Translations under genes and position numbers: made by a program | The notes under the pieces: model-generated | What the model saw: only the letters and a program-made list of their open reading frames with translations | Database searches by the model: none | What the model was told of the DNA's origin: nothing | DNA from: Gemmatimonadota bacterium | GTDB lineage: Bacteria; Gemmatimonadota; Gemmatimonadetes; Gemmatimonadales; GWC2-71-9 | NCBI GenBank assembly: GCA_031382385.1 | Contig: JANMYS010000078.1 | Location: 71,415-135,414, forward strand | Direction: 5' to 3' | DNA: 64,000 nucleotides | Shown: one piece after another, positions 1,484 through 60,191 of the stretch | Layout of the letters: each line of letters begins with the position of its first letter | How positions within the stretch are numbered: position 1 is the first letter of the stretch

Positions 1484-1547
1484 GGAGTAAGGAGTAGGCG
1501 GTAGGCGAAGAAGGCTGACGGCCAACGGCTGACGGCTGACGGCTACC
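1484..1547. repeat. Phased heptamer tract (GGAGTAA/GGCGGTA/GGCTGAC/GGCCAAC units) filling the whole convergent spacer
   Basis: gggagta aggagta ggcggta ggcgaag aaggctg acggcca acggctg acggctg acggcta reads in a constant 7-nt register between the stop codons at 1483 and 1543. Confidence 0.9.
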
Positions 1548-2106
1548 TCCCGAACTCGTACCGCACCCCCGCCTCGTCCAGCAGCCGCAGCACCAGCCGG
1601 ACCGGCAGCCCCATCACCCCGAAGAAGTCTCCCTCGATGCGGTCGACCAGCGCCGCTCCGTAGCCCTGGATCCCGTAGGCTCCCGCCTTGTCCATCGGCT
1701 CACCCGTGGCGATGTAAGCGCGGAGGAATTCATCACCACACCCGCGAAACGTGACCGCGGTGATGTCGGTGGCCTGACGCAGGACGCCGTCGGCCACCAG
1801 CGCGACGGAGGTGATCACCTCGTGGGTCCGGCCCTGCAGGGCGCGCAGCATGCGGAGCGCGTCGGCCGCATCGGTCGGCTTCTCCAGCAGCACTCCCTCC
1901 AGCAGGACCGTGGTGTCGGCACCCAGGACCAGCGCCCCAGGGACGCTCAGCGCCTTTTCCCGCGCCAGCCGCTCCACATACCCGATCGGCGATTCCCCCG
2001 CGCCACGCACCTCCGCGATGTGCGATGGGCGGACCTCGACCCTGATGCCGAGCATCTCGAGCAGCTGTTTGCGACGGGGCGAGGCGGAGGCGAGGATGAG
2101 GGGCAT
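1543..2106 (-). CDS. maf: Maf-like nucleoside triphosphate pyrophosphatase
   Basis: MPLILASASPRRKQLLEMLGI... and GAYGIQG motifs; 187 aa, typical length. Confidence 0.9.
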   Translation of the reverse strand: MPLILASASPRRKQLLEMLGIRVEVRPSHIAEVRGAGESPIGYVERLAREKALSVPGALVLGADTTVLLEGVLLEKPTDAADALRMLRALQGRTHEVITSVALVADGVLRQATDITAVTFRGCGDEFLRAYIATGEPMDKAGAYGIQGYGAALVDRIEGDFFGVMGLPVRLVLRLLDEAGVRYEFGR

Positions 2107-2135
2107 GGGCCAGTCGTGAAGCGTGGAAGGGATTC

Positions 2136-2234
2136 GGGGAACCGGGAACGGGGAACGGGAAGAGCGGTAGGACGGGGATAGCGCCGGGATCAGGTTGCCT
2201 CGGTCTCCCGTTCCCTGTTCCCCGTTCCCCGTTC
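2136..2234. repeat. Inverted GGGGAAC / GTTCCCC heptamer arrays (long hairpin) enclosing the dtd stop codon
   Basis: Left arm ggggaaccgggaacggggaacggga (2136-2160). Right arm tcccgttccctgttccccgttccccgttc (2206-2234). The dtd stop at 2190-2192 lies in the loop. Confidence 0.9.
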
Positions 2235-2669
2235 TCGCTCCAGCATCAGCGTCACCGGCCCATCATTCACCAACTCCACCTGCATGTCGGCGCCGAACTC
2301 CCCCGTCTCCACCCCCAGCCCGCGTGCCTGCAGCTGAGCGACGAACTGCTGGTAGAGGGGTATCGCGACCTCGGGGCGGGCGGCGGCGATGAACGATGGC
2401 CGACGGCCCTTCTCCGCATCCCCATAGAGGGTGAACTGCGACACCACCAGCACGCGGCCCTGCACCTCGGCCAGCGCCAGGTTCATCTTGCCCTCCGCGT
2501 CGCTGAACAGCCGGAGACCGGCGACCTTTTCCGCCATCCAGCCCACCTCCGCCGCGGTGTCGGCATGGGTGAAGCCGACCAGCACGCAGAATCCGCGGCC
2601 GATGCGGCCGCGGAGCGTGCCATCGATGGTGACGGAGGCGCTGGAGACGCGCTGGAGGATGACGCGCAT
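2190..2669 (-). CDS. dtd: D-aminoacyl-tRNA deacylase
   Basis: Internal ATG at 2669 gives MRVILQRVSSASV...SQFTLYGD..KGRRPSF. The upstream 38 codons of track ORF 2190..2783 are non-homologous. The C-terminal tail ERGTGNRERETEAT is encoded by the heptamer repeat. Confidence 0.9.
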   Translation of the reverse strand: MRVILQRVSSASVTIDGTLRGRIGRGFCVLVGFTHADTAAEVGWMAEKVAGLRLFSDAEGKMNLALAEVQGRVLVVSQFTLYGDAEKGRRPSFIAAARPEVAIPLYQQFVAQLQARGLGVETGEFGADMQVELVNDGPVTLMLERERGTGNRERETEAT

Positions 2670-2765
2670 GGGAAGAAGGTAGCCGTCCCGGCTCGCTTGG
2701 CCACCTCCGCGACCACCGGTTTCCTTGGGGCATCCCCCTCGGCACCCCCTGCAAGCGACCAACCG

Positions 2766-4309: not shown

Positions 4310-6103
4310 ATGACCCGGCGCAACCGCTTGATCGTGGTCGCGGCGGCACTGGCGCTCCTTGCCGCTGGGGGCACCCGCCTCCTCGACAGCCTTCTGGAAC
4401 GGACCCTCCGCGACCCGCTGAACAACTACCTCCGCGATCGCACCCTGCGCCTGCTGCGGGAAGACCGCCCGGAGGGACTGACGATCACCCTGCCGCAGCT
4501 GAACCTGAGCCTGCTCCGGCGGCAGCTGGAGGTGGACGAGATCCGCATTCGCTACGACCACCAGAGCGGCAATCGCTACGTGCGGATGGAAATCACCGTC
4601 CCGGAGCTGATGCTCACCGGGATCGACGTGAGCGATCTGATCTGGCGACGCCAGTTCCAGCTCACCGGCGTGCACCTCGACCACCCCCGCTTCGTGTTGC
4701 TGGATGAAGACACCACCGGCGCCGCCGATTCGAGTGCCACCCCCACTGCCCCCGCCGACGCAGAGAGTGATTCGCTGCCGGACATCTTTCCGGCGCCGGA
4801 TTCCCTGCTCTATCGGGTGGTGGCCGACTGGCTCCCGGACGACGTGCGCGAAGGGCGCATTGAGCATCTGTCAGTGGAACGCGCAACGATCACTTCGACC
4901 GTTCGCCGGGGTGCACGACTGACGGTCGACTCCACCGCCGACCTCACGCTCGCCATCCGCGGGCTGGAGCTCGACAGCACACGGCACCGGGTATTCGAGT
5001 GGGGTACACTCACCGCGAAGACGGTGATTCACGCCACACCGGGCCGGGGCGACAGTCTCGTGCTCGAACAACCCAGCATCACCGTCGTGCCGGAGGACAC
5101 CGCCTATGCCGTCGCCGTTGCGCGCACCGCACCGTGGGATGGGGGCCATGCACTTCGCATCTTCGGATTCAAGCGATCACAGGTCCGGCAGTCGCTCACG
5201 GCGGACTCCATCCTCTACGCGCCGGGCCTGCCGGACTCCCTCTTCTTCCGCGGCGCGCGAACCCGCACCAGCCGTACCCTCGCCGCGGTATATGGGCTCA
5301 CCGTGCGCGGGCTGCCCCAGGATCAGATCCGGCAGCGGCAGGCGGTCGCGCGGCGGATCGAGATCGACAGCGCCACCCTGGATGTGCTGGCCGACCACCG
5401 GCTCCCTTCCCGGCCGCCACACCGGAGCCGACGGCTCTGGCCGGCGCGGTTCGCCGCGCTGGACTGGATGGCGGGAGCAGACACCGTGGTACTCCGCGCG
5501 GGGGCGATCCGCTATGGCGAGATAATGCCGGGACGCGCGACCGCTGCCACCGTCACCTTCGATCAGATTCACGCCACCATCAGCAGCGCCACCAATGGGG
5601 CGGCGCATGGGCTGGAAACCGGACCCGTCGTCCTGGACGCCGAGGCCCGGCTCTTCGGCCACGGTGCGCTCCGCGCGCACTTCGCCATCCCGGTCAGGCG
5701 GGGGCCGCTCGAGGGCCGCATCGAGGGTCGGCTCGGTACCATGCCCCTCGAGGCGTTTGACCGTTTTGTGCTGGTGGCCAACGGTGTGGATATCACCTCG
5801 GGCAAGATGACAGAGGCCGACTTCTGGATGGACCTGGCGGGCGGCCGAGTGAAGGGCCAGTTCAAGGCCATTTGGTCCGATCTCGAGCTCCGCCTGGTGG
5901 ACCCGGTGACCCGCAAGCAGAACCTCGGCCGTAAGCTCAAATCGATGATGGCGGGATTGCTCGTGCGGAAAAACAACCCGGTGGATCGGGCGGGGGTGCC
6001 GCAGACGTTCCCCATCAACTACGTGGTCGGACCGGAGGACACCTTCTGGGGCCTGATCTGGCGCGGGGTGCGCTCCGGGATGATGAAAGCAATGAAGAAA
6101 TAG
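4310..6103 (+). CDS. Membrane-anchored hypothetical protein (AsmA/DUF748-like suspected, not verified)
   Basis: ATG at 4310 gives MTRRNRLIVVAAALALLAAGG, an N-terminal anchor. Long ORF with coding-like high third-position GC. Confidence 0.6.
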   Translation: MTRRNRLIVVAAALALLAAGGTRLLDSLLERTLRDPLNNYLRDRTLRLLREDRPEGLTITLPQLNLSLLRRQLEVDEIRIRYDHQSGNRYVRMEITVPELMLTGIDVSDLIWRRQFQLTGVHLDHPRFVLLDEDTTGAADSSATPTAPADAESDSLPDIFPAPDSLLYRVVADWLPDDVREGRIEHLSVERATITSTVRRGARLTVDSTADLTLAIRGLELDSTRHRVFEWGTLTAKTVIHATPGRGDSLVLEQPSITVVPEDTAYAVAVARTAPWDGGHALRIFGFKRSQVRQSLTADSILYAPGLPDSLFFRGARTRTSRTLAAVYGLTVRGLPQDQIRQRQAVARRIEIDSATLDVLADHRLPSRPPHRSRRLWPARFAALDWMAGADTVVLRAGAIRYGEIMPGRATAATVTFDQIHATISSATNGAAHGLETGPVVLDAEARLFGHGALRAHFAIPVRRGPLEGRIEGRLGTMPLEAFDRFVLVANGVDITSGKMTEADFWMDLAGGRVKGQFKAIWSDLELRLVDPVTRKQNLGRKLKSMMAGLLVRKNNPVDRAGVPQTFPINYVVGPEDTFWGLIWRGVRSGMMKAMKK

Positions 6104-9414: not shown

Positions 9415-10470
9415 TCAGCCCACCAGCGGCATCTGCCCGGGGTCCGGGAACTCGGCCTGAAAGGCGGCGACCACTTCGGGGTCGAAGTGGGCCCCGGCGC
9501 AGGTGCGGATCTCTTCGCAGGCGCTTGCCGCGGAAAGCGAGGCGCGGTAGGAACGGTCGGTCGTCATCGCGTCAAAGGCGTCGGCCACGGCGACGATTCG
9601 CGCCGCCCAGGGAATGCGGTTCCCCTCCAGCCGGTCGGGGAAGCCGGCGCCGTCCACCCGTTCATGATGGGACCGCACGATGGACAGCACGGTGGGATTC
9701 TGCCGTCCCAGCGGCGCCAGGATGCGCTCGCCAAGCACGGTATGCTCGGTGATGTGACCGAATTCCTCCAGCGTGAGCGGACCCGGCTTGTGGAGGATGG
9801 CCTCCGGCGTCCCGATCTTGCCGATGTCATGCAGCTCCGCGCCCAGCCGGATGTCCTCCAGCGCCTGCCCGCCGAATCCCATGCGGCTCGCGATTCGGCT
9901 GGCGTAGTGGCTCACCCGGATCGAATGACCCCGGGTATACGGATCCCGCGCATCGAGGGCATGCACCAGGGTCTGCACGCCCTCGAGGAAGAGTTCCTTG
10001 AGCCGGATGGCCTGGTGGTCGACCAACTGTTCCAGATGCTGCTGGTAGAATCGATTCTGCAGCGTGAGGTCGCGCTTCTCCAGCGCTCGCTGGATCCGGG
10101 ACCGGATCTCGCCGAGCAGGGCGGGCTTGGTGATGTAGTCGAGCGCGCCCGCCAGCAGGCACTCCACCGCGGTCTCCGCCTCGCGGACTCCGCTCAGCAT
10201 CACCACCGCCATGTCCGGATGCCGCCGCCGCACCTCCCGCAGCAGGCCGAGCCCGCCCATCCCGGGCATCGAGACGTCCGAGATCAGCAGCGGCAGCTCG
10301 CCGGTCTGCTCGAGGATGGCCAGGGCTTCGGTGCCGGAGCCAGCCTCGAGGCAGGACACGCCCATGCCTTCGAGCACCTGCGCCATGGCCCGGCGCAGCT
10401 CGGCGTCGTCGTCCGCCAGAAGGCAAAGGATTGGCGACTCGGCACTGAACGACGGAATCTGCAGCGGCAT
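9415..10470 (-). CDS. Response regulator receiver + HD-GYP-type phosphohydrolase
   Basis: REC (LLADDD...LLISDVSMPGMGG), then HD domain (HDIGKIG, HHERVDGAGFP). Start set at ATG 10470. The GTG at 10524 is an alternative, with weaker third-position GC upstream. Confidence 0.85.
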   Translation of the reverse strand: MPLQIPSFSAESPILCLLADDDAELRRAMAQVLEGMGVSCLEAGSGTEALAILEQTGELPLLISDVSMPGMGGLGLLREVRRRHPDMAVVMLSGVREAETAVECLLAGALDYITKPALLGEIRSRIQRALEKRDLTLQNRFYQQHLEQLVDHQAIRLKELFLEGVQTLVHALDARDPYTRGHSIRVSHYASRIASRMGFGGQALEDIRLGAELHDIGKIGTPEAILHKPGPLTLEEFGHITEHTVLGERILAPLGRQNPTVLSIVRSHHERVDGAGFPDRLEGNRIPWAARIVAVADAFDAMTTDRSYRASLSAASACEEIRTCAGAHFDPEVVAAFQAEFPDPGQMPLVG

Positions 10471-46868: not shown

Positions 46869-46884
46869 CCCAAGATCGTTGACC

Positions 46885-47598: not shown

Positions 47599-47618
47599 CG
47601 GGAGAGGCCCCGCCCCTC

Positions 47619-49368: not shown

Positions 49369-49373
49369 CGGAG

Positions 49374-50186
49374 GTGCCCCTGGGACCGTTGCCCCGCCTG
49401 GCCTGCACGCTGCCGGGCCTGTTGGCCTGCCTCGCCAGCCCGCTGATGGCGCAGGGGACCGCGGACCAGGCCCGCCTCACCATCGGCGTTGGCCTGATGC
49501 ACACCAGCGGGGGTGGAACGGTATGGGCCGTGCCGGCCCAGCCGATCAGCGTCGATGCGGGGGCCGATGACACACTGGCCCTCGCACGCAATCTGAGCAG
49601 CAGCTTCGGTTTCGTCTTCTCCGCCACGTATGCCCCCGGACGGTACCTTGGCTTCGCAGCCGATGTGCTGGTGACGAGACTGGGCTCTGGCGACCGCTGC
49701 AGGATCGTGCGGACCCGGGGAGCGGCCTTCACCGAGGATCTCTGCGGTTCCCTCGACAACACCGAGTACTCCAGCAGCACATCGATCCTGGCCGCGGGCG
49801 TGATCCTGCGGCCCGGCTTCCAGGGCCCGATCCAGCCCTACGCCCGGCTGATGGGAGGCTTCGGGGTGATACAACAGAGCCTGATCCAGACCGCCGGGTT
49901 CGTGCGGAGCGACAACGGCGTGGCCGACGCGGTGATCTACCGGGACGACGGCGGGACGCTGCTGTCGCCCTACTACGCCGTGGTCATCGGCGCCACGGCG
50001 GCCGCCGGGACGGGATGGCAGTTCCGCTGGGATCTGCGGCAGAGCTATCTCGCGCTACCGGGGATCACCAGCGCCACGATCCGCCAGGGCCTCACGCCCA
50101 GAACCGCGATGCGGGGTCACCATCTCTTCAGCTTCAGTGTCGGGGTCGATATCGTCCTCGAGCGGAAGCGCGGCCGGCGCTACTGA
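49374..50186 (+). CDS. Outer-membrane beta-barrel-like protein, paralogue B
   Basis: GTG start. Signal-like LACTLPGLLACLASPLMAQG. Same QGTADQA..L..GVG start and DIVLERKRGRRY end as paralogue A. Confidence 0.72.
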   Translation: MPLGPLPRLACTLPGLLACLASPLMAQGTADQARLTIGVGLMHTSGGGTVWAVPAQPISVDAGADDTLALARNLSSSFGFVFSATYAPGRYLGFAADVLVTRLGSGDRCRIVRTRGAAFTEDLCGSLDNTEYSSSTSILAAGVILRPGFQGPIQPYARLMGGFGVIQQSLIQTAGFVRSDNGVADAVIYRDDGGTLLSPYYAVVIGATAAAGTGWQFRWDLRQSYLALPGITSATIRQGLTPRTAMRGHHLFSFSVGVDIVLERKRGRRY

Positions 50187-50794
50187 TGCGGGGCGCGATC
50201 CTCGCCGGCGGGCGCTCCGTGCGCTTCGACGGCCGGCCGAAGGGGCTGGAGCGGATCGGCGGCGTGCGCCTCCTCGACCGGCTGGTGACGGCCTTCACCG
50301 AGGCCCTGGGCGAAGCACCGCTGCTGATCGCCAACGATCCCGCGGCCGCCGGCTGGGTGCCTGGGTTGCACCCGGTGGCCGACCTCCGGCCCGGCGCCGG
50401 GGCGGCGGGCGGGCTCCTCACGGCAGTGACCCTGGCGCCGGCACCGGTCGTGGTCGTCGCGTGGGACATGCCCTTCGTCAGCTCGGCGCTGATCCGCGCC
50501 CTCGCCGATGGCCTCATCGGCGTGGATGCCTTCCTGCCGGAAAGCGGCGGGCGGCGAGAGGTGGAACCGCTCTGCGCCGCCTACGGCCCGGCCACCGCCG
50601 CCGCGATCGCCGCCGCCCTCGACCGAGGCGACTTCCGGGCGGTCGGCTTCCATGAAGCGCTCAAAGTCGGTATCCTCACCCTCGAGCGGGTGCGGCAGAT
50701 TGGCGATCCCGCCCTGCTCTTCCTGAACGTGAACACGGCGGATGATCTCCGGGAGGCCGAGAGCCTGTGGCAGCGACACGCATCATCTCGATAG
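50186..50794 (+). CDS. mobA: Molybdenum cofactor guanylyltransferase
   Basis: TGATG overlap. MRGAILAGGRSVRFDGRPKGL. Confidence 0.88.
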   Translation: MRGAILAGGRSVRFDGRPKGLERIGGVRLLDRLVTAFTEALGEAPLLIANDPAAAGWVPGLHPVADLRPGAGAAGGLLTAVTLAPAPVVVVAWDMPFVSSALIRALADGLIGVDAFLPESGGRREVEPLCAAYGPATAAAIAAALDRGDFRAVGFHEALKVGILTLERVRQIGDPALLFLNVNTADDLREAESLWQRHASSR

Positions 50795-51297
50795 TCGGCC
50801 GGAAGAACGCGGGGAAGACCACACTGGCTGTCGCTCTCGCGGATGAATTCGCCCGGAAGGGCCGCCGGGTCATGATGATGAAACACGCCGCGAATCCCGT
50901 GGATGTCGATCGCAACGGCACCGACAGCTACCGGCACATGCACGAAGGCAAGGCGGAGCGGGTGCTGGTCGAGTCGCCCGGGCTGCGCAGCATCATCGAG
51001 CGGCGGGCAGAGCAGGCCGGCCCCGAAGCGCTCGCACGACGCTACTTCGACGGCGCCGACATCGTGCTGGCCGAGGGATTCTCCACCGCCCCGCTCCCAA
51101 AGATCGAGGTCTTCCGCCGCGCGGCGAACGACACGCCGCTCTATCAGGCCTCCCTTCCCGGCGCGGCACTCTGGTGCGCCATCGTCACCGACGACGACCG
51201 GTTCGAGGCCGACTGCACGGTGCTCCGCTTCCGCGACACGATGTGGATGCAACTGCTGGCCGGCATGGCGTGGGAGCGGGCAAAGGTGCTGGAGTAG
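50767..51297 (+). CDS. mobB: Molybdopterin-guanine dinucleotide biosynthesis adapter MobB
   Basis: IISIVGRKNAGKTTL P-loop; 176 aa. Confidence 0.88.
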   Translation: MAATRIISIVGRKNAGKTTLAVALADEFARKGRRVMMMKHAANPVDVDRNGTDSYRHMHEGKAERVLVESPGLRSIIERRAEQAGPEALARRYFDGADIVLAEGFSTAPLPKIEVFRRAANDTPLYQASLPGAALWCAIVTDDDRFEADCTVLRFRDTMWMQLLAGMAWERAKVLE

Positions 51298-51364
51298 GCG
51301 CGGGGCGCGAGGCGAACCGCCCACTCCCACGCGCCTCGCGCCTGTGTTCGCTCCCCACAACGAC

Positions 51365-52618
51365 ATGCCTCCCCTCACCCCCCGCGACGCTGCCCTCCGC
51401 ATCCTGACGGACATCCGCCGTCAGCCGGCGCTGCGCGTTCCCCTCGACGACGCCCTGGATGGCGTCCTCGCCGAGACGGTCATCAGTCCGCTCGATATCC
51501 CGGCATGGGCCAACTCCGCCATGGATGGCTACGCGGTTCGCGCCGAGGATGTGCGGGGCGCGAGCGAGGTCAGCCCCAGGCGCCTCACCGTCGTCGAGCA
51601 GATCCCCGCCGGCACCTTTCCCACCATCGCCATCACGCCGGGTCACTGTGCCCGGATCTTCACCGGTGCCCCGGTGCCGGGCGGGGCGGACAGCGTCATC
51701 CGGCAGGAGGACACCGACCTCGGGACCGCGGTGGTGGCGATCCTCCGGGACCGGGATGCCGGGGTGAATGTCCGTCGCGCCGGGGAGGATGTGCGTCGCG
51801 GAGCGACGGTGCTCGAGGCCGGCACCGAGCTCGGTCCAGCCCAGTTAGGCGTCCTCGCCTCGGTCGCGGTCGCCACGCCGCTGATCTACCGGCGCCCCCG
51901 CGTCGCGATCCTTGGCAGCGGCGACGAGATCGTGGACATCGACCAGCCCGACGAGATCCTGAGCGGACGCAAGATCGCCAGCTCGAATACCCACACCCTG
52001 AGTGCGCTGGTGCGGCGGGCCGGGGGCGAGCCGGTCAGCCTGGGGATCGCGCGGGACACCCCCGAGTCGCTCCGGTCACATCTGGCCGGCGCCGCTGGCT
52101 GCGACCTGCTGATCACCAGTGCGGGGATCAGCGTCGGCGAGCACGACTACATCCGCCAGGTGCTGGGCGAACTCGGCGCCGAGCTCAAGTTCTGGCGGCT
52201 GCGGATGCGCCCGGGCGCGCCGGTGGGATTCGGGCTGCTCGGCGAGATGCCGTGGATCGGGCTGCCGGGCAACCCGGTGAGCACGATGGTTACCTTCGAG
52301 CTCTTCGTGCGGCCCGCCATCCGGAAGATGTCGGGACACACCCGGCCGTTCCGCCGGACGGTGCCGGTCCGCGTCGTCGAAGCGATCACTCTCGGCCCCG
52401 GGCTGCAGCACTTCCTGCGGGTGATCGTCGCACCGACGGAGGACGGCATCCTCGAAGCCCGACTGACTGGCCCGCAGGGCTCGGGCATCCTGAGTTCGAT
52501 GGCGCGGGCGAATGCGCTGCTGATCATTCCCGAAGGCCAGGCGGAGACACCCGCCGGCAGCAGCGCCATGGCGCTCGTGCTGGACGATCCGGTGCACCTG
52601 AGCGAGCCGGGATTCTGA
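51365..52618 (+). CDS. moeA: Molybdopterin molybdenumtransferase
   Basis: ATG 51365. NSAMDGYAVRAEDV, TSAGISVGEHDY. Confidence 0.92.
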   Translation: MPPLTPRDAALRILTDIRRQPALRVPLDDALDGVLAETVISPLDIPAWANSAMDGYAVRAEDVRGASEVSPRRLTVVEQIPAGTFPTIAITPGHCARIFTGAPVPGGADSVIRQEDTDLGTAVVAILRDRDAGVNVRRAGEDVRRGATVLEAGTELGPAQLGVLASVAVATPLIYRRPRVAILGSGDEIVDIDQPDEILSGRKIASSNTHTLSALVRRAGGEPVSLGIARDTPESLRSHLAGAAGCDLLITSAGISVGEHDYIRQVLGELGAELKFWRLRMRPGAPVGFGLLGEMPWIGLPGNPVSTMVTFELFVRPAIRKMSGHTRPFRRTVPVRVVEAITLGPGLQHFLRVIVAPTEDGILEARLTGPQGSGILSSMARANALLIIPEGQAETPAGSSAMALVLDDPVHLSEPGF

Positions 52619-52635
52619 CCCCACTCACTCTGTAC

Positions 52636-53775
52636 GTGGTCTGCACACCCGGCCTCGAGGGACTGGTGGCGGGTGAACTCGGCACCCTCGGGGTGACCGT
52701 CACCGCGACGGAGCCCGGCGGCTGCAGCGCGACCGGTTCGCTGATGGATGTCGCCCGACTCAACCTCGAGCTCCGCATCGCCACCCGGGTCCTGGTGCGG
52801 CGGGCCCACTTTGCGGCCCGCGCGCTCGGCGAGCTGGAGCGCAAGGCCGGCCTGCTGCCGTGGGCCGAATGGCTCCCCGCCGGTCTCCCCGTGGTGCTGC
52901 GAGTGAGCTGCAAGAAGTCGCGGCTCTATCACCAGAAGGCGGTGGCGGAACGGATCGGCAACGCGATCCGGAGCAGCACCGGGCTCGACGCGACCACCGC
53001 CGGCGGCGAGGCCGAAGGCGAGCCCGACAGTGCGGACGATACGCCGCACCAGCTCATCATCGTTCGATTCTACCGCGATGAATGCACCATCAGCTGCGAC
53101 AGCTCCGGCGCGCTGCTGCACCGGCGCGGTTGGCGCCTCGCGACCGCCAAGGCGCCGCTCCGCGAGACGCTCGCCGCGGCGCTGCTCGCAGCCAGTGGCT
53201 GGGATCCCGCGACACCGCTGCTCGACCCCTTCTGCGGCGCCGGCACGATTCCCATCGAAGCGGCCCTGCTCGCCCGCCGGATCGCCCCCAATCTCGAGCG
53301 CCCCGTTGCCTGCGAGCGGTGGCCCGGCTTCGACGCCACGGCGATGGCGGCGCTGCGCGCAGCCGCGCGCGCCAGGGTGCTGCCCGCTGCCCCGGCGGCA
53401 ATCCTCGGCGCGGACCGGGATGCCGGGGCGATCGTCGCGGCCCGGGCCAACGCGGAACGGGCAAGTGTGGGTGCGGATATCGAGTGGCGAGAGGCTGCGA
53501 TCTCCGCGCTGGAGCCGCCGCCCGGTGCGGCAGGCTGCGTCGTGTCCAACCCGCCCTACGGTGTCCGGATCGGCGACACGCGGGACCTGCGGAACCTGTA
53601 CGCCCGACTGGGGACGGTCGCCCGCGAGCAGCTGCGGGGCTGGCAGGTAACGCTGCTCCTGGGAGAGACACCGCTGGAGCGATCGACCGGGCTCTCCCTG
53701 CGCCAGGTGCTCACCACCCGGAACGGCGGCCTGCGAGTGCGCGTGCTCACGGGCCGCGTTCCGGAGGTCCCATAG
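52636..53775 (+). CDS. THUMP-domain SAM-dependent RNA/DNA methyltransferase (RlmL/UPF0020-like)
   Basis: CTPGLEGLVAGEL THUMP N-terminus, DPFCGAGT SAM motif, VVSNPPYG catalytic motif. Start approximate: GTG 52636 is the first canonical start after the moeA stop. Confidence 0.82.
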   Translation: MVCTPGLEGLVAGELGTLGVTVTATEPGGCSATGSLMDVARLNLELRIATRVLVRRAHFAARALGELERKAGLLPWAEWLPAGLPVVLRVSCKKSRLYHQKAVAERIGNAIRSSTGLDATTAGGEAEGEPDSADDTPHQLIIVRFYRDECTISCDSSGALLHRRGWRLATAKAPLRETLAAALLAASGWDPATPLLDPFCGAGTIPIEAALLARRIAPNLERPVACERWPGFDATAMAALRAAARARVLPAAPAAILGADRDAGAIVAARANAERASVGADIEWREAAISALEPPPGAAGCVVSNPPYGVRIGDTRDLRNLYARLGTVAREQLRGWQVTLLLGETPLERSTGLSLRQVLTTRNGGLRVRVLTGRVPEVP

Positions 53776-53959
53776 AAGGAACCGATCGGTTCGATTGACG
53801 GCCCGGGCGTTGACGGCCCATGCCGAGCCTCCTACACTTCCCGCGTCGTGAAGGGGAGTAGCTTGTCCGCCGCGAGGCGGACGGCCCATCGTCAAGACTG
53901 TCGGCCCAGCGGGCCGGCACGGTGCGGCCGGGCGGGTGGCAGAGACCACCATGCAGAGC

Positions 53960-54026
53960 GAGACCTTCAACCTGCCCCGGCGCCCCAGGCTCATCCTGGA
54001 TCGGCCCGGACAGCGTTGAAGGTCTC
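53960..54026 (+). promoter_or_regulatory. 12-bp perfect inverted repeat in the htpX upstream region
   Basis: gagaccttcaac (53960-53971) ... gttgaaggtctc (54015-54026), ending 24 nt before ATG 54050. GGGAGG Shine-Dalgarno sequence at 54039-54044. Confidence 0.5.
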
Positions 54027-54049
54027 TTTGACTTGTACGGGAGGCAGCA

Positions 54050-54889
54050 ATGAACAACGTGAAGACCGCGGTATTGATGGCCGGGATGATCGCCCTGCTG
54101 ATGTCGGCGGGGCAGCTCATGGGAGGCACTCAGGGATTGGTGCTGGGTTCCATCCTGGGCCTCGGCATGAACTTCGTGATGTTCTTCTTCTCCGACAAGA
54201 TGGTGCTCAAGATGTACGGCGCCAGCATCGTGACGGAGCAGGAAGCCCCGGAGCTGTACGCCATGGTCGACCGGCTGCGCCAGCGCGCCGGGCTGCCGAT
54301 GCCGGTCGTCGCGGTGGCCCCGCACGATCAGCCCAACGCCTTTGCCACCGGGCGCAGCCCGGCCAAGGCGGTGGTGGCGGTCACGACCGGGCTGCTGCGG
54401 GTCATGCCCAAGGAAGAGCTCGAAGGCGTGATCGCGCATGAGCTGGCCCACATCAAGAACCGGGACATGCTCACCACCACGATCGCCGCGGGCATGGCCG
54501 GCATGATCGGCAACCTGCCGTGGCTGCTGATGTTCGCCGGCGGGTCCCGCGACAGCGACGACCGCCACCCGATGGCGGACCTCGCGATGGTGATTCTGGC
54601 ACCGGTGGCGGCGATGCTGATTCAGTTCGCGATCTCGCGCCAGCGCGAGTTCGAGGCGGACCGGGTCGGCGCGGAGATCTCCGGGCGGCCGCGCTCGCTC
54701 GCCAACGCTCTCCGGCGGCTGGACCAGGCGGCGCACCAGATCCCGATGAACGTGGCGCCGGCGGCGGCACCGCTCGCCCAGGTCAATCCGCTCGCCGCGA
54801 TGGGCGGCGGCATGATGCGGTGGTTCAGCACCCACCCACCGACCGAAGAACGCGTCGCCGCGCTCGAGGCCATGATGCCGGCGCGCTGA
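54050..54889 (+). CDS. htpX: Protease HtpX (M48)
   Basis: HELAHIKNRD, REFEADRVGAEIS, TM segments, C-terminal THPPTEERV. Confidence 0.93.
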   Translation: MNNVKTAVLMAGMIALLMSAGQLMGGTQGLVLGSILGLGMNFVMFFFSDKMVLKMYGASIVTEQEAPELYAMVDRLRQRAGLPMPVVAVAPHDQPNAFATGRSPAKAVVAVTTGLLRVMPKEELEGVIAHELAHIKNRDMLTTTIAAGMAGMIGNLPWLLMFAGGSRDSDDRHPMADLAMVILAPVAAMLIQFAISRQREFEADRVGAEISGRPRSLANALRRLDQAAHQIPMNVAPAAAPLAQVNPLAAMGGGMMRWFSTHPPTEERVAALEAMMPAR

Positions 54890-55810
54890 GTGCCAGCTCA
54901 CGAGCCGATAGTCTGGCTCACATTCATCGCCGTGGTGGGGACGCTGCTGGTCATCGACCTCGGCGTCCTCAACCGTCGTTCGCATGCCCTCTCACCGGCC
55001 GGAGCACTCCGCTGGAGCGGCGGGGTTGTCGCCATCTCGCTGCTGTTCGGCGCGTTCCTCTGGTGGCAGGCCGGAGAGAGCACCGCTCTGGAGTACTACG
55101 CCGGATATCTGATCGAGCTGTCCCTCAGCGTCGACAACCTCTTCGTTTTCCTGCTGGTCTTCCAGTATTTCGCGGTCCCCGCCGAGCTGCAGCCCCGGGT
55201 CCTCAAGTGGGGCATCTTCGGGGCGATCCTCATGCGCGGGGTGATGATCGGCCTGGGCGCGGTGCTGTTGCAGCGGTTTACTTGGATCACCTGGGTCTTC
55301 GGCGGCATCCTGATCATCACCGCGGTGAAGATGGCGCGGAGCGGTGAGGAACGGATCGAGCCGGAGAAGAACCCGCTGGTACGCCTCGCCCGGCGCCTCC
55401 TGCCGGTCACGCCGGCCTACGAGAACAGCCATTTCTTCGTCCGCAGTCTGACACAGGGCTGGATGGCCACGCCGCTCTTTCTCGTTCTGTTGGTCGTCGA
55501 GTGGAGCGATGTTGTCTTCGCGGTCGACAGCATTCCCGCGGTCTTCGCCGTCACCCGTGACCCCTTCGTGGTCTACGCCTCGAATCTCTTCGCGATCCTC
55601 GGCCTGCGGGCGCTCTTCTTCGTGCTGGCAGGGGCGCTGGACCGGTTCCACTACCTGAAGCCCGGTGTCGCCCTGATCCTGCTGTTCGTCGGCGCCAAGA
55701 TGCTGCTGGGCTACTGGGTGCATATCGCCACCGACCTCTCGCTGGTGGTGATCCTGGCGATTCTCACCGGGGCGGTGGGACTCTCGCTGCTGAGGCCGCG
55801 CACGACCTAG
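54890..55810 (+). CDS. TerC/Alx-family integral membrane protein
   Basis: GTG immediately after the htpX TGA. LSVDNLFVF and DSIPAVFAVT motifs. Confidence 0.9.
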   Translation: MPAHEPIVWLTFIAVVGTLLVIDLGVLNRRSHALSPAGALRWSGGVVAISLLFGAFLWWQAGESTALEYYAGYLIELSLSVDNLFVFLLVFQYFAVPAELQPRVLKWGIFGAILMRGVMIGLGAVLLQRFTWITWVFGGILIITAVKMARSGEERIEPEKNPLVRLARRLLPVTPAYENSHFFVRSLTQGWMATPLFLVLLVVEWSDVVFAVDSIPAVFAVTRDPFVVYASNLFAILGLRALFFVLAGALDRFHYLKPGVALILLFVGAKMLLGYWVHIATDLSLVVILAILTGAVGLSLLRPRTT

Positions 55811-55897
55811 CGCACCACGGCCACGCCATCCCCCGGCGCCCGCCGTTATGATTCCCCACCAGCTCCGCCCGATCCACCATCCCCACGCGTCCGGTCC

Positions 55898-57220
55898 ATG
55901 ACACTTCTCGACCGCCTCGGCCTGCACCGCCCCGACCTGCGCGCGTGGGCGATGTACGACTGGGCCAACTCCGCGATGATCACCACGATTATCACCGCGG
56001 TGTTCCCGATCTACTACTCGAAAGTGGCGGCCGGGACCCTCACGCCGCCGGAAGCGACCTATCGCCTCGCGGTGGCGACCACGATCGGGCTGGTCATCAT
56101 CGCGCTGCTCTCGCCGGTGCTCGGCACGATCGCAGACCAGGCGGCGGCCAAGAAGCGGTTCATGGCCGCCTTCATGGCGCTGGGCGTCCTCGCGGTCGGC
56201 GCGATGTTCTTCATCGAACGGGGCGACTGGGTCCTGGCCTCCGGGCTCTTCATCCTCGCCAACATCGGCGTCAACGGCAGCTTCGTCTTCTATGACGCCT
56301 TCCTGCCGCACATCGCGCGCGAGGACGAGATCGACCGCGTCTCCACCGCCGGCTATGCCCTTGGCTATGTGGGCGGCGGGATCCTGCTGGCGCTGAATCT
56401 GGCGTGGATCCAGAAGCCGGAGTGGTTCGGCCTGCCTCACGGCGAGGGGCTCAGCGCGTCGCAGCTCACCCTGCCGACGCGCCTGGCGTTCCTCTCCGTC
56501 GCCATCTGGTGGGTGGTCTTCTCGATCCCCTTCTTTCGGCGGGTCCCGGAGCCGCCGCGGCATGGCACCGCGACGCGGGTTTCGGTTGTCGCGGCCTTTC
56601 GCAACCTCGGCATCACGTTCCGTCACCTGGGACAGTACCGCCAGGCGCTGCTCATGCTGGTGGCGTTCCTGATCTACAACGACGGAATCGGCACGATCAT
56701 CCGGATGGCGGCGGTCTACGGCACCGAGATCGGCATTCCGCAGAGCGCGCTGATCGCCTCGATCCTGCTGGTGCAGTTCGTCGGCATTCCCTTTGCGTTT
56801 CTGTTCGGGAGTCTGGCGGGACGGATCGGGGCCAAGCGCGCCATCTTCATCGGACTGGTGGCCTACGGCGGGATCAGCGTGCTGGGCTACTACATGACCA
56901 CCGCGACCCACTTCCTGGTGCTCGCCGTCCTGGTCGGCATGGTCCAGGGCGGGACCCAGGCGCTGTCGCGCTCACTCTTCGCCAGCATGATCCCGAAGCG
57001 GCAATCGGCGGAGTTCTTCGGATTCTTCGCGGTGGTGGAAAAATTCGCGGGGATCTTCGGCCCGCTGATCTTCGCGGCGACGCTGGGCATCACCGGCTCC
57101 AGCCGGAATGCCCTGCTTTCGGTCATCGCGTTCTTCGTGGTGGGAGGGGCCCTGCTGCACCTGGTGGATGTGAAGGCGGGCCAGCAGGCGGTCCGGGATC
57201 TCGAGGCACGCGGCGCCTAG
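55898..57220 (+). CDS. MFS transporter, UMF1 (Atg22-like) family
   Basis: WAMYDWANSA N-terminal signature, 12 TM-like segments. Confidence 0.85.
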   Translation: MTLLDRLGLHRPDLRAWAMYDWANSAMITTIITAVFPIYYSKVAAGTLTPPEATYRLAVATTIGLVIIALLSPVLGTIADQAAAKKRFMAAFMALGVLAVGAMFFIERGDWVLASGLFILANIGVNGSFVFYDAFLPHIAREDEIDRVSTAGYALGYVGGGILLALNLAWIQKPEWFGLPHGEGLSASQLTLPTRLAFLSVAIWWVVFSIPFFRRVPEPPRHGTATRVSVVAAFRNLGITFRHLGQYRQALLMLVAFLIYNDGIGTIIRMAAVYGTEIGIPQSALIASILLVQFVGIPFAFLFGSLAGRIGAKRAIFIGLVAYGGISVLGYYMTTATHFLVLAVLVGMVQGGTQALSRSLFASMIPKRQSAEFFGFFAVVEKFAGIFGPLIFAATLGITGSSRNALLSVIAFFVVGGALLHLVDVKAGQQAVRDLEARGA

Positions 57221-58731
57221 CGCGGCGGGCCCGCGCGGAAGGTCAGCTTCACCGGCAGGCGCGCCGCGACCGCCTCGATGGTCACCGCCGCCACGTGACG
57301 ATCCGCCGTAAGCTCGACCGTCCCGCGGCCCCGCGTCGCCTTGATGGTGCCACCCCGGATGACCAGCGCCACCCGGCCAGGCTGCTCGGTACGGGACCAG
57401 CTCCCCGTGAACCGCGCCGGCGTCGGTGCCGCAACATCGATCGTCGCCGAAAAATCCGCCGCCAGCTCCACCCGGACCCCCGTCACTACCTGCGCCGGTT
57501 GTCCGGTCACCGCCAGCGTGCCGCCGCCCTTCGCCGAATCCGACAGCGCATTCAACTGGCCGGCGGTATCCGACGGCAGCTTCCCAGGCTTCCGGCCCCG
57601 GAAGGCGATCACCCAGGTCCCGGCCGCACTGCGTCCGGTGAGATCCGCCTGCGTAAAGCTCTTGCCGTCGCGCAACAGCAGCGTGCCCGTCCCGCTCGTG
57701 CCACCCTTGCCGAAGCCTTCGGTGATTTTCAGATCGATCGTCGCGCTGAGACCGCGCTGGGTCCAGGTCCCACCCAAAGAGATGCGCTCCTCGGCGCCCT
57801 GAATTGACAGGGTGGCTCGGCCATCCCGGCGGAGATCCGCCCGCGCGGCAACCAGCGTACCGGTCGTTCGGCCATTGACGCGGATGTCGCCCTCCCCGAC
57901 CATGGTCACCGCCAGCTTCTCCAGCGCCTTCCCGAAGCTCGCATCATCGGTGGCGTCCTCGTCGGTGCCCTCGAGCGGCAGCCCGGAGGCATCGAAGGTG
58001 AGGATGAACGGATCGCCCCGCACTGTGCCGCTGAGGTTGATCTTGTCCCACCCGTTCTTGCGCGACGTCGTGATCGAGCCGCTGACCTCGGCGTCATCGT
58101 TGCCGTAGCCGTCGAAGTCGACGGTCAGGCTCGGGCTGGTGAGCGAACCGGTCCAGCGCCCGGTGAGGGTATACCGGCTCCTGCCCCACACCCGGAGCTG
58201 TGCTGTGCCGTTGCGCAGCACTTTCAGGCGCCCCTGATTGAGTCGTTCGCTTTCGTCTCCAAGCGTCATCATTCCTTCGCCACCACGGGTCGTGGTGAAC
58301 TGACCCAGGCTCAGGTCGATGTTCGTGGTGACTCCTCTGCCATCGCCACCCCGCGCGCCGAAGGCGAGGGTGAAGTCCCCGTCCCGATTCGATCCCTCGA
58401 AGTTCACCCGGTCGATCGCCGAGGTCCCCCGGAGGTCGGCGCGACCGCTGCCACGGGCCGAGCGGCCAAAGGCACCGTTGATCCGGAGGTTGATCTGACC
58501 ATCAGCGGGATTTCCCGACCAGGTCCCCGCAAAGCTCCAGGTTTGCCGGCCGTGCCCCACCTCGACGGCGAGGATGTTGCCCGCATCCAGCGTGAGGCGC
58601 ACCCGGTCGATCTCCTGGGTGGCGATCCCGTCTCCGGTGACGAGCTCGCCGTTGCCGGTGCTTTCGTAGACTCCAGCCTGCGCCAGCAGCGGGGTGGAGA
58701 GGAGCAGGAGGGCCAAGGGGAAGCGGAGCAT
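57217..58731 (-). CDS. Secreted hypothetical protein with four internal ~120-aa repeats
   Basis: Signal MLRFPLALLLLSTPLLAQA (ATG 58731; 58758 is an alternative). Recurring ..(F/L)(A/T/G)G(T/R/S)W(S/T).. then ..(L/I/V/K)(A/T)F(G/D/R).. blocks at about 120-aa spacing. Confidence 0.75.
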   Translation of the reverse strand: MLRFPLALLLLSTPLLAQAGVYESTGNGELVTGDGIATQEIDRVRLTLDAGNILAVEVGHGRQTWSFAGTWSGNPADGQINLRINGAFGRSARGSGRADLRGTSAIDRVNFEGSNRDGDFTLAFGARGGDGRGVTTNIDLSLGQFTTTRGGEGMMTLGDESERLNQGRLKVLRNGTAQLRVWGRSRYTLTGRWTGSLTSPSLTVDFDGYGNDDAEVSGSITTSRKNGWDKINLSGTVRGDPFILTFDASGLPLEGTDEDATDDASFGKALEKLAVTMVGEGDIRVNGRTTGTLVAARADLRRDGRATLSIQGAEERISLGGTWTQRGLSATIDLKITEGFGKGGTSGTGTLLLRDGKSFTQADLTGRSAAGTWVIAFRGRKPGKLPSDTAGQLNALSDSAKGGGTLAVTGQPAQVVTGVRVELAADFSATIDVAAPTPARFTGSWSRTEQPGRVALVIRGGTIKATRGRGTVELTADRHVAAVTIEAVAARLPVKLTFRAGPPR

Positions 58732-58757
58732 GGTGAGCCGGGGTGAGAGGGGAGCCA

Positions 58758-58814
58758 TCAGCCGTCAGCCGTCAGCCGCCAGACAACGACGTATCGCTGA
58801 CGGCTGACGGCTGA
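58758..58814. repeat. Perfect 19-bp hairpin made of inverted CAGCCGT heptamers
   Basis: tcagccgtcagccgtcagc (58758-58776), 19-nt loop, gctgacggctgacggctga (58796-58814). Confidence 0.95.
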
Positions 58815-59028
58815 ACATCCCACACTTCGCCCACAGCCGTCAAGCGCCCCCCAGACCGGGATCCAACCTCGGCGCCTCTTGTCCCCGCTCCGCCGCCTTT
58901 CTACCTTCCCAGCCATGTCGATTCCGACCGCGCCCACCATGGGGCTGACGCCGTGCATCACGAAGCAGCCCACGCGCGGCGCGTGTCGGCCAGTCTGACG
59001 CTCACCTGTTCCCGAGCTGACTGAGACA

Positions 59029-59057
59029 CCCCGCCGCACCATCCGGCGGGGTTTTTT
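59029..59057 (+). terminator. Intrinsic terminator inside the leader of the DAP operon
   Basis: CCCCGCCG-caccatc-CGGCGGGG followed by TTTTTT. Lies 47 nt upstream of ATG 59105. Unidirectional (U-tract only on the plus strand). Confidence 0.8.
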
Positions 59058-59104
59058 ATCGGCGGATGCCAGGCCCGCCGGCATTCGCTACCGAGAGCGC
59101 CACG

Positions 59105-60145
59105 ATGATCGACCCGATCGACCTCACCCGCGCGCTGGTCGCGCTCGAGACCCCGACTGGCCAGGAAGGCCCGGCGGTGGACCTGCTGGCAGGCCTCCTC
59201 GGGCGGCTGGGCTATCAGGTCACCCGCCAGCCGGTGAGTCCGGGGCGGGACAACCTGTATGCCTGGCGCGAGCCGCCGGTCGTGGTCCTGTCCACCCACC
59301 TCGACTGCGTGCCGCCCTACCTGCCGCTGCACGAAGACGAGACCGACATCCATGGCCGGGGCAGCTGTGACGCGAAGGGTCTGGCCGCCGCGATGGTCGC
59401 AGCGGCGGAACAGCTCGCCGACTCGGGCGAGCGGCGGGTAGGGCTGCTGTTCGTCGTGGGCGAGGAGAATGGATCCGATGGGGCCGCCGCCGCCACATTG
59501 CTGAACCCCAAGGGCCGCTTCCTGATCAACGGCGAGCCCACCGAGAACAAGCTCAGCCTGGGACAGAAGGGCACCCTGAAGGTGGTGATCGAGGCCACAG
59601 GGCGCGCCGCCCATTCGGCCTATGCCGAGGAGGGGCACTCCGCCATCACACCTCTGCTCGATGCGCTCGAGCGGATTCGCCGCATCCCGCTGCCGACCGA
59701 CCCGCTGCTCGGAGCGGGGACGCTGAATATCGGGATCGTGCAGGGGGGGGTCGCGCCGAACGTCTTTGCCCCGTCGGCCCGCGCCGAGCTGCTGTTCCGC
59801 ACCGTCGAGCCCACCGGGGCGCTGCGTGCCGCGGTCACCGCCGCGGCCGGCACGGCGGTGACGGTATCCTTTCCGACCGAGCTGCCCTGCTACAAGAACT
59901 CGTCGCCTCCGCCGGCGGGATGGGCCACGACAGTGGTCAGCTATGCCAGTGACCTGTCAATTCTCACCGGCTGGGGCGAAGGCTATCAGCTTGGACCAGG
60001 CACCATCCGCGTCGCCCATACCAGCCGGGAACGGATCGCAAAGGCGGAGCTGCTCGAAGGGGTGCGACTCTACGTCCAGCTGGCGCGGGACCTGATTGGG
60101 CGGGAGCAGGCGATAGGCGATAGGCGAAGGCAGCACCTGAAATGA
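59105..60145 (+). CDS. M20-family metallopeptidase (ArgE/DapE family; DapE candidate by context)
   Basis: ATG 59105 gives MIDPIDLTRALVALETPTGQEG. HLDCVP, GRGSCDAKG, GEENGSDG. Precedes asd-dapB-dapA-dapD. Confidence 0.85.
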   Translation: MIDPIDLTRALVALETPTGQEGPAVDLLAGLLGRLGYQVTRQPVSPGRDNLYAWREPPVVVLSTHLDCVPPYLPLHEDETDIHGRGSCDAKGLAAAMVAAAEQLADSGERRVGLLFVVGEENGSDGAAAATLLNPKGRFLINGEPTENKLSLGQKGTLKVVIEATGRAAHSAYAEEGHSAITPLLDALERIRRIPLPTDPLLGAGTLNIGIVQGGVAPNVFAPSARAELLFRTVEPTGALRAAVTAAAGTAVTVSFPTELPCYKNSSPPPAGWATTVVSYASDLSILTGWGEGYQLGPGTIRVAHTSRERIAKAELLEGVRLYVQLARDLIGREQAIGDRRRQHLK

Positions 60146-60191
60146 GCCAGCTGAACGCTGACGGCTGACGGCCAACGGCTAACGGCCACTA
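60108..60191. repeat. Phased heptamer tract (AGGCGAT x3 ... GCTGACG/GCCAACG units) spanning the M20 stop and the asd upstream spacer
   Basis: aggcgat aggcgat aggcgaa ggcagca cctgaaa tgagcca gctgaac gctgacg gctgacg gccaacg gctaacg gccacta. Confidence 0.9.

Follow-up and report, generated by a model that had tools for sequence, protein, structure and literature searches.

The question raised by this locus is why the spacers between its genes so often carry tandem repeats of 7 nt, some running one way and others facing each other as complementary pairs. The locus is a 64,000-nt stretch from a soil bacterium of the phylum Gemmatimonadota (GenBank assembly GCA_031382385.1, contig JANMYS010000078.1, positions 71,415-135,414 of the forward strand), here called the window and numbered from its first letter. 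Its arrays are spacer-specific and vary by whole units. The inverted pairs among them are conserved in position, period and arm length in relatives, and their arms covary and are constrained. We favour, with a probability of about 0.55, the reading that these are heptanucleotide simple-sequence arrays generated by slippage and that, where they form inverted pairs at gene junctions, selection maintains them as structural elements.

Extent of the period-7 arrays

Genes were mapped by codon-usage log-odds, and the map was then corrected by Pfam matches and the gene calls of relatives. Arrays were detected by autocorrelation, by Tandem Repeats Finder (TRF) and by a strict tract rule (at least 12 of 14 matches at lag 7), which were used instead of an initial tract detector that was over-strict and missed most arrays.

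An initial annotation of the window had proposed comparing period 7 between spacers and genes, and between real and shuffled sequence. TRF returned 27 period-7 rows, against a mean of 3.2 and a maximum of 9 in 30 dinucleotide-preserving shuffles of the window used as chance control. The rows merge into 25 arrays (the longest with 17.9 copies), which lie at or beside all coordinates listed previously; 20 of them fall in the non-coding part, about 9% of the window. By autocorrelation, match frequencies in spacers were 0.361, 0.348, 0.344 and 0.339 at lags 7, 14, 21 and 28 over a baseline of ~0.28, whereas coding sequence displayed period 3 only. Strict tracts covered 13.9% of intergenic versus 0.16% of coding bases. 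When periods 5-11 were compared, none besides 7 came near in tract coverage.

The statement that most spacers are built from such repeats was too strong: strict tracts were present in 12 of the 34 spacers of at least 30 nt, loose tracts in ~17-18, and tract coverage inside an array-bearing spacer was 15-59%. The contrast with coding periodicity also needs a qualification, in that five arrays extend into the extreme first or last codons of coding sequences, including those at 2207-2234, 25909-25928, 25948-25979 and 60108-60131. By spacer type, arrays were present in 9 of the 25 co-directional spacers, in 2 of the 3 convergent ones and in 1 of the 6 divergent ones (small numbers), and they stood mostly 3' of stop codons. 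Their neighbours in the Pfam-based map are ubiD-, ubiA-, ubiX- and ubiE-like genes and genes for IMPDH, Dtd, Maf, ASD, Fpg and permeases.

The heptamer units of the window are GGCTGAC, GGCCAAC, GGCGGTA, GGGGAAC, CTGCCAC and GCTGAAT, with GGGGAAC at 4 loci and GGCTGAC-type units at 10 or more. The GGCGGTA, GCTGAAT and GGCTGAC/GGCCAAC families are 1-2 substitutions apart and share a common register in several arrays. Abutting families had been described as keeping one register; this holds for four composite arrays (21455-21560, 24768-24927, 35725-35837 and 36966-37034) but not for two others (1497-1513 and 60128-60150). A common origin had also been suggested from a GG(C/G)NNNN phasing of most units. 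This found no statistical support, as 58% of random heptamers of the same base composition fit the pattern. Each interval listed does contain tandem copies of the unit named for it, on one strand or the other, although some hold 2-3 units (1497-1510, 40283-40305) or are degenerate (15312-15350), and 2136-2234, 23946-24015, 25909-25978, 27463-27601 and 58758-58814 are not single tracts but two inverted arms around a non-repeat loop.

Independent Logan contigs matched the window at 100% through the arrays at 25909-25979, so the arrays are not an assembly artefact, which had been a concern. Two 1.4-kb Logan unitigs were 100% identical to the window. Logan contigs terminate within arrays.

Inverted pairs and hairpins

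Two classes of array were distinguished: one-way composite arrays of widely varying copy number, and inverted pairs with 3-5 units per arm, which form the strongest hairpins. One-way arrays reach 18-23 units. The long hairpins expected from the inverted pairs were borne out by inverted-repeat search and RNAfold. The longest inverted repeats of the window are heptamer-array pairs (27452-27612, 2117-2242, 25908-25979, 36952-37020, 58758-58814, 21501-21544 and 23946-24015), and RNAfold z was -4.5 to -6.7 for spacers with inverted pairs versus ~0 to +2.5 for spacers with one-way arrays. The pairs are placed exactly at gene junctions; in two cases the arms lie on either side of a stop codon or of a stop/start overlap. 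No common sequence was found in the loops of pairs that belong to one family.

Conserved junctions in relatives

By its UbiA homologues, the window belongs to the Gemmatimonadales within the Gemmatimonadota. Syntenic loci were compared from a species at 95% UbiA identity (L121-L124, including GCA_034440415.1), from a species with ~90% nucleotide identity to the window (L130, GCA_031413355.1, and L131) and, at a greater distance, from two genomes (L127, L128). Arrays recur in the corresponding spacers of relatives, with other copy numbers and often other units. For the junction of UbiA and UbiX, 80 related metagenomic loci were recovered using UbiX.

At this UbiA-UbiX junction, an inverted pair was present in 42 of 80 loci, each arm having ~4.0-4.6 units and the loop 2-115 nt. 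The pairs were built from at least 12 different units, including GGAACGC, GGAATGC, GGGAAAC, GGGATGC, GGGGGAA, GGGGAGA, GGGGAGC, GGGGGAC, GTGAACA, GCGAGAA and GGATTGC, and the consensus units of the two arms were exactly complementary in 37 of the 42. Pairing was counted in 25 distinct hairpins with 28 pairs each, using shuffles and slid partners as controls. Paired cells amounted to 89.9%, a percentage inflated by the fitting of windows to each sequence, versus 50.7% in shuffles and 37-54% with slid partners. Changes on both sides were found at all 28 pairs and in 286 cells, versus 82 in shuffles; 0 of 500 shuffles reached 286. In two loci (L204 and L211) one arm had switched a base in all of its units and the other arm was unchanged.

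Nucleotide diversity (pi) was determined in the groups with GGAATGC (10 loci) and GGAACGC (12 loci) units. It was 0.04-0.10 in the hairpin arms, 0.25-0.27 in the loops, 0.23-0.34 at third codon positions of UbiA and UbiX and 0.07 at their first and second positions. Within a unit type, arm evolution is as slow as that of first and second codon positions. On the favoured reading the inverted pairs are not junk: the pair lasts across dozens of lineages at the UbiA-UbiX junction, retaining period 7 and arm length as units are replaced in both arms together.

In these relatives a small open reading frame (ORF) encloses both arms. The UbiA stop overlaps with the start of this ORF (ATGA or GTGA), and the UbiX start with its stop. 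A coding signature is clear in the tail of the small ORF, with pi at third positions of 0.41-0.44 versus 0.04-0.10 at first and second positions (pi1/pi2/pi3 ~0.09/0.05/0.42). The arms lack this third-position excess and are therefore constrained as nucleotides, beyond any constraint on the protein. In the window, the small ORF lies at 24597-24746 on the minus strand, where it encodes a basic, Pro/Arg-rich peptide of 49 aa and its stop likewise overlaps the UbiX start. It is unannotated (MSKRPKETLIPVRGRGKPAPEKGALQQKVPPPQPERRPLKTPTANRRGR), more than 40 Gemmatimonadales loci share its conserved C-terminus (HPKRSPTPNRRGR), and searches of the window's copy against Pfam and NCBIfam gave no match.

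In most Gemmatimonadales, UbiX and a metallophosphoesterase gene adjoin without a spacer; seven lineages near the window have an arm-loop-arm module at this junction. Each lineage has a unit of its own: GTTGGCC in the window, AATCAGC in L130, ATTCAGC in L121, GGCCGTT in L127, GTTCCGC in L135, GAGTTCC in L138 and AATTGGT in L137. The L137 pair (~5450-5560; AATTGGT / ACCAATT, CAATTTT) is AT-rich in a genome of 64% GC, whereas the units of its relatives at this position are GC-rich.

Copy-number change

The between-strain comparison of copy number suggested by the initial annotation gave a clear case. L121 and L122/L124 are 99.95-100% identical over 13 kb with one large difference only: their UbiE-UbiD spacers differ by 56 bp, corresponding to exactly seven 8-nt GGGCGATT units (12 vs 5 copies). 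In the spacer from UbiA to the small ORF, the window, L130 and L121 share the family order octamer, GCTGAAY, GGCTGAC/GGCCAAC, at copy numbers of ~10/4/18, ~23/2/5 and 2.5/3/3, respectively; the relatives' metagenomic contigs are short-read assemblies in which the sizes of long arrays may be wrong. Identical family order with differing copy numbers indicates that free arrays change quickly and by whole units.

The octamers in this comparison stand beside heptamers as arrays of GGGCGATT/GGGCGGTT with up to ~23 copies (window 24926-25008; L121 22-108 and 3962-4059; L130 3386-3560). Their unit resembles GGCGATA/GGCGGTA plus one base, and the octanucleotide array would be derived from heptanucleotide arrays.

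Where families co-occur, their order on the G-rich strand is GGCG(G/A)TA-type (or octamer), then GCTGAAY, then GGCTGAC/GGCCAAC, at six loci or more (window 1497-1547, 21455-21560, 24768-25008 and 60108-60186; L121 1-151 and 14334-14444). Exceptions are 35725-35760 and 38600-38656, where a GGCCAAC-type unit precedes a GCTGAAY unit.

Relative to the window, L121 contains an extra 3.3-kb segment with two genes (a 169-aa gene and an S8 peptidase gene), both borders of which lie in GTCAGCC arrays. The window spacer at 21423-21615 corresponds to the left part of one of the L121 spacers 9939-10181 and 13231-13508 joined to the right part of the other, with the junction inside the GTCAGCC arrays. From the borders of this segment, arrays may act as indel breakpoints.

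Proposed mechanism

Strand slippage would create and resize the arrays in place, the copy-number change itself being observed, and turnover by gain and loss would keep the units alike. One-way composite arrays in truly non-coding spacers would be free to expand, up to 18-23 units, and would essentially be hypervariable filler. Inverted pairs at stop/start junctions are predicted to fold into stems of ~20-31 bp. By analogy, such a stem would be a selected intercistronic element with a role like that of the stem-loops of repetitive extragenic palindromic sequences and bacterial interspersed mosaic elements (REP/BIME) or of RNase III-type processing stems. Its effect may be on mRNA processing or stability, or it may impose translational coupling. 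Complementarity of the arms would be maintained by template switching from arm to arm combined with selection for pairing.

In relatives, the small-ORF start is located at the base of the stem. UbiA, the small ORF and UbiX could form a relay, in which the stem would keep the small ORF's initiation region closed until a ribosome comes from UbiA. Gain or loss of a unit in the small ORF would shift the frame, which would account for the fixed copy number at the UbiA-UbiX junction.

Several points weigh against selected stems and slippage as the explanation. Folding is no better for sense than for antisense transcripts (slightly better for the latter, p = 0.04), and G-U pairs are few, so there is no G-U signature of selection on sense RNA, and a process or function at the DNA level fits equally. 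None of the heptamer hairpins in the regions scanned has a T-run 3' of it, and they are hence not canonical terminators. The arms at the UbiA-UbiX junction lie inside a translated small ORF, and frame constraints there add to the stability of copy number. To these come the per-sequence fitting behind the pairing percentage and the short-read origin of the relatives' contigs. Finally, slippage alone leaves unaccounted for the period of 7 and the recurrence of the same few units at many loci per genome.

A bolder version of the favoured reading, which we put forward tentatively and with low confidence, would cover this last point. The inverted pairs would be an undescribed class of self-homogenising junction stems in the Gemmatimonadales, made of tandem 7-nt units, held at ~30 bp, evolving by coordinated unit replacement in both arms and able to sit in a ribosome-relaying small ORF; the genome-specific unit repertoires and the strict period of 7 would reflect a dedicated trans-acting factor or a specific property of replication or repair.

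Alternative explanations

The alternative that survives best, possible though in our view not probable, is a purely mutational by-product: neutral or selfish repeats without function, whose arms are kept complementary by replication template-switching across the quasi-palindrome. Such a process would fit the copy-number polymorphism and turnover, the missing folding advantage and few G-U pairs of the sense strand, the array-free junctions in close relatives (L133, L134, L136) and the intermediate states with a single switched arm in L204 and L211. It would also fit the CAGCCRT arrays, which have no bias in orientation to transcription among the loci found in many phyla (see below). However, homogenisation within a genome cannot hold arms near-identical between lineages, and arm pi was 0.04-0.10 versus 0.25-0.44 at neutral-like sites. 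Arm length, moreover, stays near 4.5 units across dozens of lineages, in contrast to unpaired arrays, which vary between 2.5 and 23 units.

These CAGCCRT loci were collected by searching GTDB representative genomes for (CAGCCRT)x3.7, which yielded at least 118 loci in Acidobacteriota, Gemmatimonadota, Planctomycetota, Bacteroidota, Chloroflexota, Actinomycetota, Cyanobacteriota and others. In the window, the orientation of CAGCCRT-type arrays to transcription was a suggestive 8:2. The idea that the stop-rich GGCTGAC strand is kept sense was nevertheless rejected, with 28 G-sense versus 16 + 22 C-sense cases among the loci listed. Inverted pairing was rejected as a general property of CAGCCRT, a partner within 300 nt being present in 6 of the loci listed. 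A replication-strand bias was likewise rejected, both forms being about equally frequent on the plus strand of the window.

It is unlikely that the arrays are sequence-specific binding arrays, in which each unit family would be a multimeric site for a DNA- or RNA-binding protein, as part of a regulon or in nucleoid organisation, as proposed for TAACTGA in Beggiatoaceae. The recurrence of few units at many loci per genome (4 for GGGGAAC, 10 or more for GGCTGAC-type), the conservation of unit sequence within clades, the preserved periodicity and the recurring order GGCGGTA-type, GCTGAAY, GGCTGAC could all be read in this way. One genome, though, contains at least 5-6 unrelated units, one junction uses at least 12 units across related lineages, and both orientations occur. 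The neighbours are unrelated housekeeping genes, and no candidate binding protein was identified.

REPs are linked to REP-associated tyrosine transposases (RAYTs). Dispersal by such a transposase of arm-loop-arm modules resembling REPs, REP doublets (REPINs) or miniature inverted-repeat transposable elements (MITEs) is less likely still. Whole modules of ~90-125 nt are indeed present or absent between stop and start codon in close relatives, the unit families are genome-specific, and the location preference is REP-like. But the arrays change by whole units in place, and no target-site duplications or conserved termini were seen. A MITE reading was rejected on the loops, which in same-family pairs have no common sequence. 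No transposase gene, including RAYT (Y1), was found among the window genes scanned (part of the 56 genes in 64 kb). Relatives do have a separate REP/MITE-like palindrome (GTCATCCYGAGCGMAGCGARGGATC and an inverted copy) in their spacers, at 534-647, 1767-1907 and 19250-19370 in L128 and at ~6985-7060 in L130; none was seen in the window.

For the GGGGAAC family alone, a switch was considered in which the G-rich arm would form a G-quadruplex (G4) in competition with the hairpin, a proposal made earlier for the Xanthomonas unit GGGAATC and the Nostoc unit GGGGAYT. GGGGAAC is similar to these published heptamers, and (GGGGAAC)x4.6 at 27462-27493 fits the canonical G4 motif (at least 4 runs of at least 3 G, 1-7 nt apart), the arm at 2135-2161 approximately so; both are thus predicted G4 candidates. 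The switch is very improbable, however, as an account of the arrays, since it covers one family only and the others have no G runs, orthologous hairpins use units without them (GTGAACA, GCGAGAA, GGATTGC), and a G arm always has a complementary C arm.

Phase-variable contingency loci or an assembly artefact, for which unit-number polymorphism and the mis-sizing of repeats by short-read assemblers might speak, are the least probable of the alternatives, as the arrays flank housekeeping genes and stand after stop codons rather than in promoters or 5' frames of surface genes, and the same arrays recur in assemblies and samples that are independent of each other; for the CAGCCRT family these include long-read and complete chromosomes.

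Array loci and other features of the window

At 1497-1547, in the convergent spacer between the stop codons of a cyclase gene and Maf, a one-way composite array contains GGCGGTA-type units followed by GGCTGAC/GGCCAAC x5 (TRF 1513-1544, 4.6 copies). The inverted pair at 2117-2242, GGGGAAC (2135-2161) and GTTCCCC (2206-2234), surrounds the Dtd stop codon at 2190; the arm at 2207-2234 encodes a 15-aa tail past the Dtd domain (Pfam Tyr_Deacylase, residues 2-144 of 159). The weakest locus, at 15312-15350 right after a stop codon, is a degenerate C-rich tract of period 6-7 and TCCCNTT type (TRF).

Three adjoining arrays occupy 21455-21613 in the spacer of Fpg and a UvrC_M-like gene: GGCGGTA x3.6, GGCCAAC to GGCTGAC x8 (in register, with a palindromic centre) and CTGCCAC x4.3. 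RNAfold z was -5.4, and orthologous arrays are present in L121 and L130. The UbiX-metallophosphoesterase spacer holds the inverted pair GTTGGCC / GGCCAAC at 23945-24015, with 94% complementarity and z = -4.5.

The largest array block, at 24768-25008 from the UbiA stop to the small ORF, consists of CAGCC(G/A)T x17.9, ATTCAGC x4.4 and the octamer CAATCGCC x10.4. This 10-copy octamer array (24926-25008) was absent from the initial list. At 25908-25979 the inverted pair GGGAACG / CGTTCCC flanks the overlap of UbiD stop and UbiA start, and both arms are translated, as the UbiD tail GNGETGTGNGTNR and the UbiA N-terminus MSTPVPRSPFPVV. It is present in L121, L130 and L131 and missing from L128. The longest inverted repeat of the window, at 27452-27612 in the UbiE-UbiD spacer, consists of GGGGAAC x4.6 and GTTCCCC x4 around a 77-nt loop (z = -5.95).

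Further one-way arrays are TCAGCCG x4 at 31434-31461 in a convergent spacer (TRF) and, at 35725-35837 in the spacer of a DHH and a NifU-like gene, GTTGGCC/ATTAGCC x5 followed in register by CACCTGC/TCCCTGC x7, which is unstructured (z = +0.5). The array at 36952-37039, TACCGCC to TATCGCC x8, has a short inverted partner GGCGGTAGGCG at 36966-36976. TRF further gave GGCCGTT x3.4 at 38630-38656, between two amino-acid permease genes, and ACGGCTG x3 at 40283-40305, adjoining the IMPDH stop codon.

The sole array locus in a divergent spacer, at 58753-58814, is the inverted pair CAGCCGT x4.3 / GCTGACG x2.7, with 19-nt arms of 100% complementarity and a whole-spacer z of -6.7. At 60108-60188, GGCGATA x3.6 lies in the last codons of an M20 peptidase gene and GCTGAAC/GCTGACG/GCCAACG x5 extends from its stop up to the ASD gene.

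Arrays without stop codons are absorbed into the ends of coding sequences at 2193-2234, 25909-25979 and 60108-60131, and start and stop calls made automatically beside arrays need caution. Unlike 1-40 kb and 58-61 kb, the 17 kb at 41000-58000, where genes are closely packed and mostly co-directional, hold hardly any heptamer arrays.

No part of the window matched Rfam at gathering threshold, a tRNA/tmRNA scan of the window found none, and promoter and terminator consensus scans gave results no better than shuffles. Within the regions scanned, a canonical terminator, with hairpin and T-run, was present at 59028-59052 only. Upstream of it, in the apparently divergent spacer, a possible 27-aa ORF at 58915-58998 (plus strand) could be a small gene, a leader peptide or a small RNA. 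The 274-nt spacer at 53776-54049 is without heptamers and Rfam matches; it has z = -4.3 and a promoter-like TTGACG-17-TACACT at 53810-53838, and is a candidate for an undescribed leader or riboswitch preceding the gene at 54050.

Relation to known repeats

The class of long simple sequence repeats (LSSRs) comprises units of 5-11 nt (Mrazek, Guo & Shah 2007, as cited in PMC4679880; Huang & Mrazek 2014, PMC4060949). According to the account in PMC4679880, heptanucleotides are the most abundant LSSR class in Burkholderia, Xanthomonas and actinobacteria, and slippage favoured by the polymerase footprint was proposed as a cause of LSSRs (Mrazek et al. 2007). Geobacter metallireducens has the heptamer sets GGGACCG and MTYCTGA (PMC2700814). 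The belief that a high-GC lineage offers no equivalent was therefore wrong.

As far as LSSRs are described in these accounts, the arrays of the window resemble them in being tandem heptamers beyond chance length, arranged head to tail, preferentially non-coding, variable in unit number (in short-read assemblies) and sporadic across phyla, high-GC genomes included. They differ in being denser (25 arrays in 64 kb; ~1 per kb in L121) and in that several families abut per spacer. Neither position-conserved, covarying inverted pairs nor Gemmatimonadota form part of those LSSR descriptions.

Xanthomonas contains ~185 intergenic GGGAATC arrays, usually of ~4 units and some as inverted pairs, with no link to virulence genes; they lie between the same gene pairs at differing lengths in two species (Rehm et al. 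2015, PMC4692102). The same study covers GGGGA(T/C)T arrays in Nostoc and mentions three tandem heptanucleotides reported in Calothrix PCC 7601 (PMC4692102). G-rich intergenic heptamers, ~4 units and inverted pairs are shared with the window, GGGGAAC being one or two substitutions away. There, one family dominates and the focus is on G4, whereas the window has at least 5 families, most of them unable to form G4. Covariation and constraint of the arms were not analysed in that study.

Heterocystous cyanobacteria carry the short tandemly repeated repetitive (STRR) units CCCCAGT, TTGGTCA and CAACAGT, which the initial annotation had aptly named as an analogue in kind. TAACTGA arrays are shared by Beggiatoaceae, cyanobacteria and some Bacteroidetes; their origin is unexplained (MacGregor 2015, PMC4679880). 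They stand mostly in one orientation just upstream of start codons, with one inverted case reported (PMC4679880). STRR and TAACTGA arrays are likewise heptamers over more than 100 spacers with patchy phylogeny and unexplained dispersal, and TCAGTTA, the reverse complement of TAACTGA, resembles TCAGCCG/TCAGCCA. Units and taxon differ, however, and in the window both orientations occur and inverted pairs are common.

The REP/BIME elements of proteobacteria (Di Nocera et al. 2013, PMC3733652) are similar in forming stem-loops between co-directional or convergent genes, in being rare at divergent promoters and in having genome-specific families with different families in orthologous spacers; the location preference found here (9 of 25, 2 of 3 and 1 of 6 spacers) agrees, on small numbers. 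A REP, as described there, is a single imperfect palindrome of 20-40 nt with a GTAG or CGTC head, whereas the arms here are tandem 7-mers of variable number that change by whole units, with loops without common sequence, so the exclusion of classical REPs by the initial annotation stands. So does that of CRISPR, which has 23-50 nt repeats and unique spacers, whereas the units here are 7-8 nt and directly abutting.

The open-access literature searched yielded no description from Gemmatimonadota, no comparable density or multiplicity of families, and no conserved, covarying and constrained stems of heptamer arrays, embedded in small ORFs or otherwise. The repeats themselves are thus of a known kind, ordinary for bacteria rich in simple-sequence repeats, and conserved covarying hairpins built from repeats were not found described.

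Significance for the Gemmatimonadales

Dispersed heptamers have been known since the cyanobacterial STRRs and as the dominant LSSR class since 2007, and their origin, dispersal and function are unexplained. The arrays are a lineage-wide trait of the Gemmatimonadales, in which the clade of the window is unusually rich, and the lineage offers a dense comparative view, with junctions that can be traced through dozens of uncultured relatives. Free arrays that change in copy number and inverted arrays that form constrained stems separate mutational filler from a selected structural element. In practice, arrays break short-read assemblies, extend or shift annotated gene ends (Dtd, UbiD, UbiA, M20 peptidase), hide a conserved small protein and may mark indel breakpoints. 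If the tentative reading as self-homogenising stems is true, it would give a handle on why heptamers dominate bacterial LSSRs and on how one unit reaches hundreds of spacers.

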